From a virus (taxonomy: Duplodnaviria; Heunggongvirae; Uroviricota; Caudoviricetes), in IMG/VR virus record IMGVR_UViG_2740892426_000002: a stretch of DNA of 6,068 nucleotides; one strand, 5' to 3'. Both the position numbers and the translations under genes were made by a program. The notes below the pieces were generated by a model. That model saw nothing but the letters and a program-made list of their open reading frames with translations, ran no database searches and was not told where the DNA came from. Of the stretch, positions 1 through 4,118 are shown piece by piece. Within the stretch, counting starts at the first letter, position 1; every line of letters begins with the position of its first letter.

Positions 1-497
1 CTACTTATGAGTATGAAGGATTCGGCGTGGGTGCAACCTATGCTAAATCAGATCGCACTGACGGTCAGGTCGCCTATGGTAAGAGCAAATTCAATGCCTC
101 CGGCAAAAATGCGGAAGTATGGGCTGCAGGCCTGAAATATGATGCGAACAATATCTATCTGGCTACCACATATTCTGAAACTCAGAATATGACCGTTTTT
201 GGTAATAACCATATTGCAAACAAAGCACAAAACTTTGAAGCAGTAGCACAATATCAGTTTGACTTCGGTCTGCGACCATCTGTTGCTTACCTTCAGTCAA
301 AAGGTAAAGACCTTGGTGTTCATGGTGACCGAGACTTAGTCAAGTATGTCGATGTCGGTGCTACTTACTACTTTAATAAAAACATGTCCACTTTTGTTGA
401 TTACAAAATCAACTTAATTGACGATAGTAAGTTTACCAAAACAGCTGGTATTGATACCGACGACATCGTCGCTGTAGGTCTGGTTTATCAGTTCTAA
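1..497 (+). CDS. nmpC: General outer-membrane porin (OmpC/OmpF/NmpC family), 3' portion; the 5' end lies outside the window
   Basis: Frame is open from the window edge (codons from nt 3: [22 protein letters not shown]...) to TAA at 495-497. The translation ...[22 protein letters not shown]...[33 protein letters not shown]...[27 protein letters not shown]...[12 protein letters not shown] closely resembles the C-terminal beta-strands of enterobacterial general porins, including the terminal ...GLVYQF. It is convergent with the Q gene, as nmpC is with quuD in DLP12-type prophages. The symbol rests on recalled similarity and context, not a search. Confidence 0.85.
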
Positions 498-505
498 TCT
501 GACTT

Positions 506-548
506 ACGAAAAAGATATGTTGCGGGAGGCTTTGCCTCCGCAACATAT
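506..548 (-). terminator. Putative rho-independent terminator for minus-strand transcripts leaving the Q region (tR'-like); long bulged hairpin plus U-tract
   Basis: Inverted repeat ATATGTTGCGGGAGGC (515-530) / GCCTCCGCAACATAT (534-548) with a 3-nt loop gives a 15-bp stem with one bulged G. On the minus strand it is followed directly by CTTTTTCG (complement of + 507-514). There is no U-tract on the + side. Confidence 0.5.
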
Positions 549-634
549 AAGTGGAGCCCTCAAGCCACTTCCTTTAGAAGCACTACCTTGCTTCTTACTA
601 TATAAACCTTCTGTTATATATTACCCTTTATTTT

Positions 635-660
635 GGGGGCGTTTCCACGCCCCATTTTTA
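635..660 (+). terminator. Putative rho-independent terminator (copy 1) downstream of the porin gene
   Basis: Stem GGGGCGT (636-642), loop TTCC, stem ACGCCCC (647-653), then A + TTTTT (655-659) on the + strand. Confidence 0.55.
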
Positions 661-676
661 ATAACTTTTAGTAAAA

Positions 677-702
677 GGGGGCGTTTCCACGCCCCATTTT
701 TA
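677..702 (+). terminator. Putative rho-independent terminator (copy 2); may also act weakly on the minus strand
   Basis: Same hairpin and T5 tract as copy 1. On the minus strand this copy is followed by C + TTTT (complement of + 673-676), so some bidirectional activity between the convergent porin and Q genes is possible. Confidence 0.5.
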
Positions 703-727
703 ATAACTTTTAGTAAACAATTGCATA

Positions 728-1111
728 TCAATTAGAATTATTAGCAACGATATCCATATCTAACCGGATATCTAATGCCATTAACATCCCTTCAATTATG
801 CCCTCAGCCTTCTGTAACCTTTTCCCGATATAACCATCCGAGCAGCAATGCTTACTTGCCAGTGACATGAATGTCATACCACATACATAATAATCTACTA
901 ATAAATCGTGTAAATCGCTGTTGTTCTTTTTCAGACGGGCCATGCACCCGCAAATGATCATCGCGTCATCGTCACAACATTGCGGGCGAGATTTTACTTT
1001 TGAAGGAATTAATCCCTTAAAACCGGCGGCAACGGACGACCAGGTCACATCTTCATGATTATTAGCCGCCCACGCTCCCCAACGCTCAAGAACCATCTGA
1101 ATATCACGCAT
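728..1111 (-). CDS. quuD: Lambdoid prophage late-gene antiterminator Q homolog (QuuD-like, 127 aa, Cys-rich putative Zn-binding)
   Basis: ORF 728..1126 (-) reads [24 protein letters not shown]...[19 protein letters not shown]...[19 protein letters not shown]...NNSN. I prefer the ATG at 1111..1109, which has GGAG 7 nt upstream (TTGTGGAGTAAGTTGATG) and gives 127 aa; the ORF-track start at 1126 is a TTG. Stop TGA at 730-728. It follows rusA-ylcG as in DLP12. Confidence 0.85.
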
Positions 1112-1196
1112 CAACTTACTCCACAAAAATCAGACCAGAACGCCAATTACAAGCAAAAATCAACAAAACAGTATTAGTTGATTGTTATCTCTGACT

Positions 1197-1337
1197 TCAT
1201 ACTCCTGCTCCTGTCAGGGTTTTGGCGTAATTCTTCAGTATTCGGTAATCGGTCAAAACAGAACCAGGAAAACGATATAAGCGCAGGCGCACCCAGCGGC
1301 GGCGAAGACGCTCTGCCATATAAGACTCAAACATCAT
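1197..1337 (-). CDS. ylcG: Small DLP12-type prophage protein YlcG-like (46 aa); below the ORF-track length cutoff
   Basis: Hand translation of the minus strand from ATG 1337..1335 gives [46 protein letters not shown], with TGA at 1199-1197. The start overlaps the rusA stop (ATGA). The 46-aa length and position between rusA and Q match ylcG; residue-level identity was not checked. Confidence 0.6.
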
Positions 1338-1696
1338 TCATCTCCCAGTTCAGTGATAGTCAGCTCCAGCTTCCCACCTTTGGTAACGGGCATCTTCACA
1401 ACGCGGTAATCAACGACCTGAGCATCATCCAGCCAGAAACCTGCTTTGGTGAGTGCGTCAAAAGCGGCCTTTTGCAGATTATCAAGGTCACGGCGACGGC
1501 GATCCGGCATGTGGCACTCAATGCTGATTTTCACAGGAATAGCCAGGCCGATATCCAGCATTGCGTTTTTAATGATTCGGGCGACATTATCGCGGTATGC
1601 CTGCCCCTCTGCGCTGATATGCGTGCGTCCGCGATTATGGCGGTAATAGCGATTATTGCTCGGCGGCCAGGGTAATGTGATGCTGTAGGTATTCAC
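1334..1696 (-). CDS. rusA: Holliday-junction resolvase RusA (crossover junction endodeoxyribonuclease), 120 aa
   Basis: Translation [50 protein letters not shown]...[48 protein letters not shown]...TITELGDE matches RusA as I recall it. The ATG at 1696 overlaps the ybcO stop (ATGA). Confidence 0.92.
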
Positions 1697-1983
1697 GCCT
1701 CAATAACCCCCTCTTTCAACCAGATAACCTGTGTTCTCGCCATACCTTCCAGCGCGCATTCTTTTGCATATCCAGCGTCAACAAAATGCGTGCGACGGTC
1801 GATTTCGTCGTGGCAGGCAGAACATGCAATGGTGGCAATCAGGTCTGGCGGTTTGATACCGGTACAGCACAATCCAGCCAGCCGGATATGTGCCAGTACT
1901 GACGTTTCAGGATTGCCATTACATACGCCAGGGATTCTTACCTGGCATTCCCGACCACGCGCTGCTTTTCTCAAATCAGCCAT
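1693..1983 (-). CDS. ybcO: DLP12-type prophage protein YbcO (putative Cys/His metal-binding nuclease, 96 aa)
   Basis: Internal ATG at 1983..1981 is preceded by a perfect AGGAGG (AAGGAGGAATCATG) and yields [35 protein letters not shown]...[44 protein letters not shown] (96 aa). The ORF-track start at 2022 is a TTG lying inside ninE. Stop TGA at 1695-1693. Confidence 0.85.
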
Positions 1984-2146
1984 GATTCCTCCTTGCTGCC
2001 AGTCGCAACCATTTTTTATCAACCAGGCTGGCGGTATACCCGAGCAGTGTTGGTATTTCGGATGGCTTCAGCTCAGGTTTACGCTTACGACGATTTGGTA
2101 CTTTGTAGATGTGTCCGTTCATGACACGAATAAGCGGTGTAGCCAT
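1976..2146 (-). CDS. ninE: NinE-like small nin-region protein (56 aa); below the ORF-track length cutoff
   Basis: Hand translation from ATG 2146..2144 gives [56 protein letters not shown], with TGA at 1978-1976. The ATG overlaps the ybcN stop (TAATG) and the 3' end overlaps the ybcO start by 8 nt. Basic, Arg/Lys-rich small protein, as expected for NinE. Confidence 0.75.
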   Translation of the reverse strand: MATPLIRVMNGHIYKVPNRRKRKPELKPSEIPTLLGYTASLVDKKWLRLAARRNHG

Positions 2147-2601
2147 TACGCCTCCTGCTTGTCGCGCAGCAGCTGGAACTCGCAGCTCTGCGGAATAGTC
2201 AGGTGGCAGCCAATATTCATCGCCCAGGCTTCAACCTTACACAGGAAGACATACATCTCTCCGGTATCAAGATCGGAGGTATGGCGTAACGACTGGATAG
2301 TAGTGATTTCGCCGGTTACGACATCAACCAGGTCCTTGGTTTCATAACCGAGGTATGTGTGTTTGAGAGCATCTTTTACCCATGCTGCGGTAGCGAACGA
2401 TTTCCCCCTGCTGATGAGGTATTCACTGATTTCGCTGTACCACATATGGCTGAGTGCATTCTGGGAAAGACTGCGTTTCTCACGCCACGGTTTAAGCACC
2501 ATGCGAAAGCATTTTCCGTCCTCCAGATAAGGCTGGATCTGCTGGCCGATAGCGATGAAGTTACCGCGATGCAGTTTGATGCCATCTTGTGGTAGGTTCA
2601 C
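2146..2601 (-). CDS. ybcN: YbcN, probable NinB/Orf-family recombination-associated protein, 151 aa
   Basis: ORF with GTG start at 2601..2599 preceded by GGAGGT at a 5-nt spacing. Translation [62 protein letters not shown]...LRDKQEA. The [11 protein letters not shown] segment resembles the lambda Orf/NinB core as I recall it. Confidence 0.85.
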
Positions 2602-2699
2602 GCTTCACCTCCACAGAGGTCAGACGCTGGATGCAAAAAAACGCAGGTGCATTTCTGCATCTGTGAAGGGAGAAGAGAGTTTGGATTGTGTGTGCGCAT
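2598..2699 (-). CDS. ylcH: Small ORF (33 aa) in the position of DLP12 ylcH, just upstream of and overlapping the ybcN start
   Basis: Minus-strand ATG at 2699..2697, with GGGGA 5 nt upstream, gives [33 protein letters not shown]. The TGA at 2600-2598 overlaps the ybcN GTG (GTGA). Length and position fit ylcH, but the ORF also contains a terminator-like hairpin plus T7 run, so it may be a non-coding leader instead. Confidence 0.4.
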
Positions 2700-2723
2700 A
2701 AACGTCCCCGTTTAGCGCAGAAG

Positions 2724-2750
2724 TCACCGGAGTTGTTCAGGCTCCGGTGA
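2724..2750. promoter_or_regulatory. Perfect 9-bp inverted repeat with 9-bp spacer; candidate operator or leader hairpin at the predicted start of the nin-operon transcript
   Basis: TCACCGGAG (2724-2732) - TTGTTCAGG - CTCCGGTGA (2742-2750). It sits 4 bp from the candidate -10 element and has no adjacent U-tract on either strand. Confidence 0.4.
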
Positions 2751-2754
2751 TACA

Positions 2755-2783
2755 ATTATGGCGAATTGATTATTCATAATCAA
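2755..2783 (-). promoter_or_regulatory. Candidate sigma70 promoter driving the minus-strand ylcH-ybcN-ninE-ybcO-rusA-ylcG-quuD chain
   Basis: Minus strand reads TTGATT (-35, complement of + 2778-2783), a 17-nt spacer, then CATAAT (-10, complement of + 2755-2760). The predicted start near 2748 falls inside the inverted repeat. Sequence-pattern match only. Confidence 0.3.
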
Positions 2784-2920
2784 ACAAGATAAGGTCTCAA
2801 ACTTCATGCAAGCCAAGATTTATTTCTGACAGAATTATACAAAGAAGCTATTGGTCAGAATCTACTCGGACTGTAAAACATACGCATAACCTTAAGCTCT
2901 CACTTTAAGCATTGTTGAAA

Positions 2921-2992
2921 TAATAGCCGTCAAGTACAACCTTAACCACGACTGGGATATTTCCCTGGCTACCACGAGTTGTACGGCTATTA
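2921..2992. repeat. Long interrupted inverted repeat upstream of the esterase gene (10 + 5 bp arms with a 5-nt bulge, 37-nt loop)
   Basis: TAATAGCCGT (2921-2930) pairs with ACGGCTATTA (2983-2992), and ACAAC (2936-2940) pairs with GTTGT (2978-2982). The loop contains an imperfect 9-bp direct repeat, ACCACGACT (2945-2953) and ACCACGAGT (2971-2979). Confidence 0.7.
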
Positions 2993-3048
2993 AACTGCCG
3001 TTAAATTCAGTAAGAGAATTTCATCCGATAAGTCAAGGCATGTAAAAC

Positions 3049-4092
3049 ATGAAAATTAACAAGATATTATCATCTGCAACACTATTGTATGGTATGTCAA
3101 TGGCCATGTCGGTCGGGAGTTGTGCAACACCTGTCCAGACTAATCTTCCTGGTTACACCCCGGGTGCAGATATCATTAGTGTTTCACCGACCAGAAACCA
3201 AGTCGATCTCATTGGTGATGTTGTTTATTCCCAGATAAAAGGAACTCGTTCTGTCAGACAGCTTCACATGTCAGTTCTTGTCCCGCGAACAAATGATTTA
3301 AAACCAGCCATTATTTATTATCCCGGCGGCGGATTCATGTCTTCTGAACATGACAAATTTATTGAAATGAGAATGGCTCTGGCAGAAGCTGGTTTTGTTG
3401 TGGCCGCTGTAGAATACAGAACAATTCCTGATACATTTCCAGCACCAGTTGAGGATGGAAAAGCTGCAATACGTTACCTGAGAGAGCATGCCAGCAATTA
3501 TGGGATTGATCCTCAAAGAATCGGAGTTCTGGGTGACTCTGCCGGTGGATGGCTTGCTCAGATGATGGGAACTACAAATGGTGACAAAACCTTTGATAAA
3601 GGTGACTTTCTTCAGCAATCCTCAGATGTTCAGGCAGTTGCCACACTTTATGGGATTTCTGACTTGTTGAATATTGGCGAGGGGTTCCCTGAATCAGTGC
3701 AGGAGGTTCATCGCTCTCCTGCCGTAACCGAAGCCTTAATGATCAATGGCCCTGCATTCAGAAATTTTGCGGGAGCCCCCATCACAGCGTCAAAAGAAAA
3801 AGCGCTAAACGCCAGTCCAATCGGACATATGAAAGGAGTAAAACCCCCATTTCTTATTATGCATGGTAGCAAAGACACTCTGGTTTCACCTGAGCAAAGC
3901 GCCAAACTATTCAGGATGTTGAAGAAGAACGGCGATAACGCTGAGTACGTGCTGGTAGAAGGGGCCGAGCATGGCGATAAGACATGGTATCAGCCAATTA
4001 TTATAAACAGAGTCGTTGAGTGGTTTACTAAAAACCTGGGAGCGCCTATAAAAACAGCTCCCCAACAACAAAACCCAAACGCTAACCTGTAA
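3049..4092 (+). CDS. Secreted, probably lipoprotein, alpha/beta-hydrolase fold esterase/lipase (HSL/Abhydrolase_3-like), 347 aa
   Basis: N-terminal signal peptide MKINKILSSATLLYGMSMAMSVGSC with lipobox-like SVGS-C (Cys25). Oxyanion-hole-type motif YYPGGGF, nucleophile elbow GDSAGG, candidate acid in HGSKD and His in GAEHG are in the order expected for the catalytic triad. Stop TAA at 4090-4092. The Shine-Dalgarno is weak and the start context AT-rich. Confidence 0.85.
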   Translation: MKINKILSSATLLYGMSMAMSVGSCATPVQTNLPGYTPGADIISVSPTRNQVDLIGDVVYSQIKGTRSVRQLHMSVLVPRTNDLKPAIIYYPGGGFMSSEHDKFIEMRMALAEAGFVVAAVEYRTIPDTFPAPVEDGKAAIRYLREHASNYGIDPQRIGVLGDSAGGWLAQMMGTTNGDKTFDKGDFLQQSSDVQAVATLYGISDLLNIGEGFPESVQEVHRSPAVTEALMINGPAFRNFAGAPITASKEKALNASPIGHMKGVKPPFLIMHGSKDTLVSPEQSAKLFRMLKKNGDNAEYVLVEGAEHGDKTWYQPIIINRVVEWFTKNLGAPIKTAPQQQNPNANL

Positions 4093-4095
4093 AAA

Positions 4096-4118
4096 GAGGG
4101 AGGGCTAAGCCCTCCCCA
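4096..4118. terminator. Terminator hairpin shared by the convergent esterase (+) and adhesin (-) genes; stronger on the minus strand
   Basis: GGGAGGGCT (4098-4106) / AGCCCTCCC (4108-4116) is a perfect GC-rich palindrome. On the minus strand it is followed by TCTTTTT (complement of + 4091-4097), 13 nt after the adhesin stop. On the + strand it starts 6 nt after the esterase stop and is followed by CATTCAATTTTGTT, a weaker, displaced U-tract. Confidence 0.6.

Follow-up and report, generated by a model that had tools for sequence, protein, structure and literature searches.

A conserved leader with covarying hairpins and a short open reading frame at the entrance of the nin block in lambda-like phages

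What precedes the nin genes of a lambda-like prophage, and is a perfect palindrome found at a predicted transcription start there an operator for these genes? The question is raised by a stretch of 6,068 nucleotides from a tailed-phage record (IMGVR_UViG_2740892426_000002), which was analyzed at its full length and is referred to here as the window. It contains a chain of nin and Q genes on the minus strand, with a promoter-like site and an inverted repeat at the upstream end of this chain. The original prediction held that a prophage segment begins abruptly at this place, that the palindrome has the geometry of a repressor operator, and that a native promoter could have RusA and Q expressed in this strain. 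The genes on the two sides of the site are as follows.

2146 to 2601, minus strand: ybcN (Orf/NinB-like), the first gene of the nin block
1976 to 2146, minus strand: ninE, nin block, after ybcN
1693 to 1983, minus strand: ybcO, nin block
1334 to 1696, minus strand: rusA, nin block
1197 to 1337, minus strand: ylcG, nin block
728 to 1111, minus strand: quuD, nin block
2785 to 4096, plus strand: variable cargo, with an esterase gene (3049 to 4092) that has its own upstream region and is divergent from the nin leader

The window is ~100% identical to sequences of the E. coli strains PAR, A3, A26 and H22. In PAR, the order begins with icd and leads to intE (frameshifted), the excisionase gene, IS elements, O (frameshifted), P and a 3.9-kb inverse autotransporter gene, followed by the alpha/beta hydrolase (the esterase), a 33-codon ORF and ybcN. 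It continues with ninE, ybcO, rusA, ylcG, quuD, ompC, essD and a truncated lysozyme gene, after which come gpJ (with an internal stop) and, farther on, sitABCD. The replication genes O and P of PAR are located ~2.2 kb past the right end of the window, and intE, xis and icd 6.4-10.8 kb past it. Because these phage genes continue beyond the window, the nin-Q chain lies in the middle of a defective lambda-like prophage and not at a prophage edge. The abrupt beginning proposed originally is contradicted by this order, in which P, O, the excisionase gene and intE are found farther on, adjoining icd. It is true of the window that it holds no replication or repressor gene, but only since the window ends too early.

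The infectious phage 4A7, with the gene order cI, cro, cII, O, P, ren, qacE, recombinase, esterase, ybcN and onward to Q, matches positions 1-4096 of the window at 98.7%, and its homology ends at 4096. Positions 2560-3060, which comprise the junction and the esterase region, are present at 99.8-100% identity in eight sequenced phages, including 4A7, Lambda_4C10, D2, 1W, 3W, Perceval and PhiR47_2. Phage homology thus runs across 2800-3048, a result at odds with the boundary that the original prediction had drawn. The esterase is a member of the phage protein family phrog_3341 (E = 1.9e-129). A test of 2784 as an att junction failed, with phage P and O lying beyond this position and free phages carrying the junction intact.

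Alignment of the window to the DLP12 prophage of K-12, by which the original prediction had sought the breakpoint of phage homology, gives a match over 456-2784 at 93.5%, and the homology breaks off precisely at 2784, a single nucleotide upstream of the -35 hexamer. In most other lambda-like phages the homology also ends at 2784. Across 73 distinct variants of the region, the information content is ~0 up to 1 nt upstream of the -35 hexamer and then climbs, and more than 15 unrelated left flanks abut the module just upstream of this hexamer. The left-hand cargo is ybcL-ybcM in K-12, a gp45-like gene in phi80 and the esterase gene here. Since the information rises at this place and more than 15 flanks join there, the conserved nin module starts with its own -35 hexamer, and 2784 is an internal mosaic joint between variable cargo and the conserved module. 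The following elements are predicted at the start of the module.

2778 to 2783, minus strand: -35 hexamer TTGATT of the putative nin-leader promoter (sequence, consensus scan and conservation)
2755 to 2760, minus strand: -10 hexamer CATAAT, 17 nt from the -35 hexamer (sequence, consensus scan and conservation)
2748, minus strand: predicted transcription start, an A located 7 nt after the -10 hexamer, in the 5' arm of hairpin HP1 (spacing)
2766 to 2783, no strand assigned: 18-bp dyad TTGATTAT-GA-ATAATCAA over the -35 hexamer and the spacer, about -35 to -18; candidate operator

Read on the minus strand, TTGATT, a 17-nt spacer and CATAAT are followed by TGTA and then by TCACCGGAG-CCTGAACAA-CTCCGGTGA (2750-2724). 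The sigma70-like element named in the original prediction is therefore present as described and is conserved in homologues, and the palindrome does cover the predicted start, with ~2748 falling in its 5' arm. The promoter-like site scores 9 of 12 matches in a consensus scan, and two such sites were observed in 2400-3200 versus 1.4 ± 1.1 expected. The palindrome pattern with up to three mismatches occurs once in the window (0.00 expected), but inverted repeats of 9 bp or more within 40 nt number five there. By these counts, neither the promoter-like site nor the palindrome is remarkable by itself, and the reality of these features rests on their conservation.

Homologues were gathered with the YbcN protein in viral contigs, by BLAST in phages, and with an invariant 17-mer taking one genome per species, the last set spanning Enterobacter, Citrobacter, Lelliottia, Trabulsiella, Huaxiibacter and Escherichia sp. 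It should be mentioned that the invariance of the core is partly by construction in the genome copies retrieved with the 17-mer, a bias from which the copies retrieved with YbcN are free. In the 73 distinct variants, the -35 hexamer carries 0.9-1.6 bits per position and the hexamers 0.9-2 bits, compared with ~0 in the upstream flank. A single TTGA is located at the 17-nt distance in 53 of the 73, and most of them retain both hexamers with the 17-nt spacing. In a few lineages, other promoter-like sequences take the place of the hexamers at the same distance from the hairpin, namely an extended -10 (TGTTATAAT) in the homologues L121 and L150 and TTGAAA-17-CAATAT in L038. This replacement argues for selection on promoter function, and a sigma70-type promoter is plausible at this site, with an activity that we infer rather than observe. 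A search of the literature on ylcH, its transcription start or its regulation yielded nothing past a table entry.

The -35 hexamer also forms the left half of a dyad with the family consensus TTGATT-N6-AATCAA, the right half of which lies in the spacer. The AATCA half in the spacer matches the -35 hexamer in conservation (0.8-1.65 bits in the 73 distinct variants). Contacts of sigma70 fail to explain this conservation, as sigma70 makes no base contacts in the spacer. The window, 4A7 and the 46-kb PAR region each contain the dyad once, and phi80 has one copy at the equivalent place and one match elsewhere under the looser pattern TTGA-N10-TCAA. Because its halves are conserved, its centre is free and it spans about -35 to -18, the dyad is a better candidate for an operator than the flagged palindrome, and it may be bound by a protein. 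Among the sites of the E. coli regulators FNR, CRP, Fur, IHF, ArgR and LexA, we know of none that fits the N8 spacing or the sequence of this dyad. It is noted that the dyad was missed in the original prediction.

Downstream of the -10 hexamer, the module contains a short ORF and a series of hairpins.

2724 to 2750, minus strand: HP1, a hairpin with a covarying stem of 9-13 bp and the conserved loop N-CUGAACA-N (covariation)
2693 to 2719, minus strand: HP2, a hairpin of 10-11 bp with a GGGA tetraloop that is the Shine-Dalgarno sequence; its 3' arm holds the start codon of orf33
2598 to 2699, minus strand: leader ORF orf33/ylcH, 33 codons, the stop TGA of which overlaps the ybcN start GTG (GTGA)
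2635 to 2663, minus strand: GAAA-capped hairpin CAGAUGCA-GAAA-UGCACCUG followed by CG and U7, inside orf33; weakly terminator-like
2608 to 2619, minus strand: HP4, CCUC-UGUG-GAGG (family CCUC-UGYG-GAGG), predicted to sequester the ybcN Shine-Dalgarno sequence GGAGG (covariation)

HP1 is the palindrome flagged originally, and its arms are indeed a perfect 9-bp inverted repeat around a centre of 9 nt (TCACCGGAG at 2724-2732 and CTCCGGTGA at 2742-2750). In the homologues, 42 distinct versions of this hairpin were found, belonging to at least eight unrelated stem families. Besides the TCACCGGAG/CTCCGGTGA pair of the window, these include GTCGCAGTCGG/CCGGTTGCGAC, GTCGTAGTCGG/CCGATTGCGAC, GTTGCGTCCGG/CCGGGCGTGAC and TCATCGGAG/CTTCGATGA, and the stem of phi80 is TCTGCCAGCGG/CCCTGGCAGA. 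The loop core CUGAACA is kept throughout, with its U, G, A and C positions invariant. In the 33 gap-free versions, 93.9% of the stem cells are paired, as compared with 63.5 ± 1.9% in column shuffles (0 of 500 shuffles reached 93.9%), and sliding the partners by 1-3 columns lowers the pairing to 29-51%; compensatory cells number 84 versus 26.7 in shuffles, although the sequences are related and the shuffle statistics therefore overstate their independence. Both sides change in nine of the ten pairs. On the nin sense strand, 46 cells are G.U and 8 are A.C, an excess that would be expected if this strand folds but not if a protein read duplex DNA. The covarying arms, the fixed loop and the excess of G.U over A.C on the sense strand indicate that the palindrome is an RNA hairpin and not an operator. 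The conserved loop implies a protein or RNA partner, and its CUGA fits YUNR, which we take to be the U-turn motif known from antisense RNAs.

HP2 begins five bases after HP1 and corresponds to the repeat annotated as IR4 in phi80. It was extracted by anchoring on its loop, as MAFFT misaligns HP2 and alifold consequently under-reports it. Nine distinct, unrelated stems were obtained in this way, with 89 of 90 cells paired and at least two pair types at every pair. The 3' arm contains AUG here (2699-2697), and AUG or GUG across the family. In 92 of 94 distinct DNA variants, the leader ORF that starts from this codon remains open over 29-33 codons and ends in an overlap of the type ATGA or GTGA. 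Its observed lengths of 29, 31, 32 and 33 codons mean that the indels are all multiples of three, and its stop overlaps the start of the next gene, whichever gene follows. The encoded peptide matches no NCBIfam or PHROG family. From its conserved frame and overlap, the leader ORF is probably translated and coupled to ybcN.

Inside orf33, the stretch CACAGATGCAGAAATGCACCTG of the internal hairpin is almost invariant, while the U run is only partly conserved. The hairpin has a predicted energy of -7.3 kcal/mol, versus -8.1 to -11.8 for the alternative fold, and the alternative helix AUGCAGAAA/UUUUUGCAU (2631-2660) could form once more RNA has been made. The hairpin at 2644-2663 with its U7 thus fits an intrinsic terminator weakly. 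At HP4, covariation is seen in the alignment pairs 190-201 (CG 27, UA 9) and 192-199 (UA 30, CG 11). For the whole leader, the minimum free energy is -58.7 kcal/mol, with z = -5.7.

Of 5426 complete E. coli genomes, 4262 (~79%) contain the arrangement, which also occurs in phages 82, phi80 and 4A7 and among other Enterobacteriaceae. In K-12 DLP12, the sequence TTGATTTTGGGAAATCAACACGGCATAATTATGTCACCGGAGCCTGAACAACTCCGGTGAC between ybcM and ylcH agrees with the window in its hexamers and their spacing, and its palindrome is perfect over 10 bp. The GenBank record X92588 of phage 82 (Mahdi et al. 1996) gives a putative -35 and a putative -10 at the homologous place, and it labels the repeat upstream of orf33-orf151 as a 'possible regulator-binding site'. 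The features are therefore not new, having been annotated in phage 82 since 1996, only as 'putative', and being carried by K-12. Positions 2594-2784 of the window are 91-93% identical to phage 82 and K-12 and share with them the -35 and -10 hexamers, the 17-nt spacer, the palindrome and the 33-codon ORF. The palindrome arm is 10 bp in those sequences and 9 bp here, and K-12 has ybcL-ybcM upstream of the -35 hexamer where the window has the esterase gene. Whereas the annotation in X92588 is that of a regulator-binding site, the comparative data presented here point to an RNA hairpin.

The occurrence of the element in K-12 also bears on expression. In K-12, rusA is quiescent unless an insertion of IS2 or IS10 supplies a promoter (PMC1636454, PMC4118853), in agreement with the near-silence of the gene cited in the original prediction. 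Because K-12 carries the same element and its rusA is quiescent, strain-specific expression of the Holliday-junction resolvase RusA and the late-gene antiterminator Q cannot be inferred from a native promoter, contrary to what had been suggested.

We consider it probable that this region, the conserved 'nin leader' of the phage 82, DLP12, phi80 and 4A7 type of phages, works as a structured, coupled leader-ORF module. On the minus strand, the module would consist in order of a promoter embedded in the dyad, HP1, HP2, the ORF-internal hairpin, HP4 and the GTGA overlap. Going beyond the observed conservation, covariation, strand bias, conserved ORF frame, genomic context and presence in K-12, we infer every regulatory step of the model as follows. 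During lytic growth, N-modified transcription from pR would cross the cargo and enter the nin block, where translation would begin at a standard start provided by the leader and kept closed by HP2 and HP4. Ribosomes that open HP2 and translate the leader ORF would unfold the hairpins downstream and pass translation on to ybcN. The local promoter would add at most a low expression without need of the antiterminator N. In a lysogen, the HP2 lock would keep this expression low, with possible contributions from weak termination in the leader ORF and from a protein bound to the dyad. Such a lock, together with the possible termination and the possible dyad-binding protein, would account for the quiescent rusA of K-12 despite its promoter-like element. 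The stem of HP1 may also protect the 5' region of the nin mRNA.

A further proposal, which we put forward tentatively and regard as rather doubtful in its full extent, is that of a widespread cis module in which a promoter gated by a protein on the TTGATT-N6-AATCAA dyad is combined with an RNA whose invariant CUGAACA loop is read by a protein or RNA partner, so that the N-independent expression of ybcN, rusA and Q from resident prophages would be set at this site.

The promoter, HP1, HP2 and the U-rich hairpin could instead form a small RNA of ~115 nt that acts in trans via the U-turn-type loop of HP1, with the nin genes being read from pR only. The promoter-like site, the structured 5' part and the hairpin with U7 at 2635-2663 would suit such a molecule, as would the invariant HP1 loop. 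In addition, phi80 and HK225 conserve just 2622-2742, and ylcH RNA is reportedly detectable and 2-fold up in microaerobic K-12. We find a small RNA unlikely all the same, given that the terminator hairpin is weak, that its U run varies, and that the conserved frame and the stop/start overlap would be needless for a non-coding RNA. No match was returned by the Rfam covariance models over 2300-3100 on either strand with E values up to 10. The nin mRNA holds no complement of the HP1 loop, the sole 9-nt complement being located in the esterase mRNA, which belongs to the variable cargo. The known prophage small RNAs Pas, AgvB, AsxR and STnc100 are located near lysis genes and not at the nin leader.

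HP1 could also be taken for the counterpart of lambda tR2, that is, a terminator or processing barrier for transcripts arriving from upstream, with the hexamers being incidental. The lambda tR2 hairpin with its T run occupies the same map position, between ren and ninB and just before the first nin gene. Moreover, the outermost pairs of HP1, which lie upstream of the predicted start at 2748, still covary. The full stem must therefore matter either in the read-through RNA coming from pR or in DNA; the promoter-centred part of our model leaves this covariation unexplained, whereas selection of the full stem in read-through RNA is what a tR2-like element would call for. However, HP1 is followed by GACUUCUGCGC with no U tract, and a terminator scan makes no call there. 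A conserved 7-nt loop is unneeded by a terminator, and hexamers that are conserved with their 17-nt spacing, or else replaced in place by other promoter-like sequences, do not look incidental. Lambda tR2 for its part has a canonical T run, is without a promoter, a leader ORF or a conserved loop, and shows no sequence similarity to the nin leader. A tR2-like role for HP1 is accordingly judged quite improbable.

The palindrome as a repressor operator over the start of a promoter from which this strain would express RusA and Q is less credible still. Its repeat does span about -3 to +25 of the promoter-like site, and the phage 82 record carries the label quoted above. Against this stand the unrelated stem families, at least eight in number, with compensatory changes in the arms around a conserved centre, which is the reverse of operator geometry, and the far greater number of G.U than of A.C cells, pointing to one folded strand. 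The presence of the same element in K-12 with a silent rusA speaks against it as well. HP1 is single-copy in the window, in 4A7, in phi80 and in the 46-kb PAR region, with phi80 having in addition one unrelated antisense hairpin with the loop of HP1. Of 120 exact palindromes in viral contigs, 119 are located in the same nin leader. Further copies of the palindrome had been expected to lead to a cognate regulator, but 4A7, phi80 and the PAR region contain only one each, and no regulon emerges from the viral contigs, 4A7, phi80 or the PAR region, where the flanking genes vary. On these comparisons, the operator reading of 2724-2750 is already largely refuted, and covariation should be examined before any perfect palindrome at a start site is taken for an operator.

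We give hardly any credence to a role of the palindrome in DNA, as a cruciform or single-strand hairpin that may for example serve as a recombination hotspot making the mosaic joint, for although the module boundary is only 35-60 bp off and the homology of contig L038 breaks inside the 5' arm, the break is nearly always upstream of the -35 hexamer rather than at the hairpin, and the conserved loop and the covarying HP2 with its Shine-Dalgarno sequence and start codon suit an mRNA leader better.

The structured, coupled leader-ORF module that we favor can be compared with known systems. In pyrBI-type leaders, a terminator hairpin is located inside a leader ORF, and translation is coupled to the following gene. 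The nin leader resembles them in having a short conserved ORF after the promoter, hairpins over start sites, an ORF-internal hairpin with a U-rich run, and a stop codon that overlaps the next start. Unlike them, it is without evident regulatory codons or sensing logic, and its terminator is weak. The boxB hairpin of nut and the put RNAs of HK022 are likewise hairpin RNAs close behind a phage promoter, and put consists of two stem-loops of ~70 nt in total, to which the ~60 nt spanned by HP1 and HP2 may be compared. However, both nut and put are found twice, on the left behind pL and on the right behind pR, whereas the nin-leader element is single-copy. In boxB, a stem of 5 bp carries a GNRA-like loop of 5 nt, and boxA lies upstream; HP1 differs in its stem of 9-13 bp, its loop of 7-9 nt and the promoter -10 directly upstream. 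The put stem-loops, which bind RNA polymerase and have no coding role, are irregular and contain no ribosome site; the layout of the nin leader differs, with regular stems and with a Shine-Dalgarno sequence and a start codon in HP2. Readings of the element as nut-like, put-like or Q-utilisation-like were considered and are not favored on account of copy number, the form of stem and loop, and the coding content of HP2.

The nin leader is an uncharacterised example of a familiar kind of control region. What remains of interest is that the nin block is preceded by a conserved and structured leader that contains a leader ORF. This leader is absent from Rfam and also marks a site of cargo-gene swapping among lambda-like phages. 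If the promoter and the dyad are functional, they could explain a basal or conditional expression of the recombination genes and Q of cryptic prophages.

Both halves of a perfect dyad that overlaps the -35 hexamer and spacer of the nin-leader promoter, the conserved module upstream of ybcN, are kept throughout the family (TTGATT-N6-AATCAA), while its centre is free. Judged from this pattern, the dyad is a candidate operator-like site; it is absent from the original prediction. The elements considered here are as follows.

Features of the window and of related loci
635-717: perfect 42-bp tandem duplication between ompC and quuD
2766-2783: perfect 8+8 dyad, TTGATTAT-GA-ATAATCAA, over the -35 and spacer
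4098-4116: GGGAGGGCT-A-AGCCCTCCC, a perfect inverted repeat (9 bp, loop of 1 nt) in the gap between the esterase gene and the inverse-autotransporter gene, which converge
4129-6068: inverse-autotransporter gene (3.9 kb, intimin/invasin-like, with Big domains), extending in the E. coli strain PAR locus (L004) to position 27995
L086 (E. coli AHM21C2872I) 3001-3147: degenerate nin-leader copy adjoining fliE
L200 (phi80) 14835-14858, minus strand: hairpin tggcctga-CTGAACAA-tcaggccg, with the same loop core as HP1

HP1 is the covarying hairpin of the leader. A 9-nt stretch of the esterase mRNA, UGUUCAGGC (3625-3633, plus strand), is perfectly complementary to its loop region, GCCUGAACA; by chance the window should hold about 0.05 such complements. 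The pairing is probably a coincidence, since the esterase belongs to the variable cargo. The phi80 hairpin lies antisense inside a tail gene.

Each copy of the 42-bp duplication contains a hairpin, GGGGCGTTTCCACGCCCC, with T/A runs on its flanks, an arrangement that is terminator-like on both strands.

Homology to phage 4A7 stops at 4096, just short of the inverted repeat. The inverse-autotransporter gene is cargo of the prophage, with phage gene P on one side and the esterase on the other, whereas in 4A7 its place is occupied by ren, qacE and a recombinase. In this infectious phage, an icd fragment and sitABCD, which encodes an iron/manganese transporter, adjoin the integrase (L199 24135-27584), an arrangement that agrees with that of the defective sitABCD-bearing prophage at icd in strain PAR (L004 8780-12229).

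The leader copy in E. coli AHM21C2872I retains ~82% identity, with its hexamers and hairpins decayed. It adjoins ybcM-ybcL-emrE, and downstream, IS200/IS605 remnants are found instead of ybcN. This copy is a piece of a DLP12-like prophage, stranded at a different locus.
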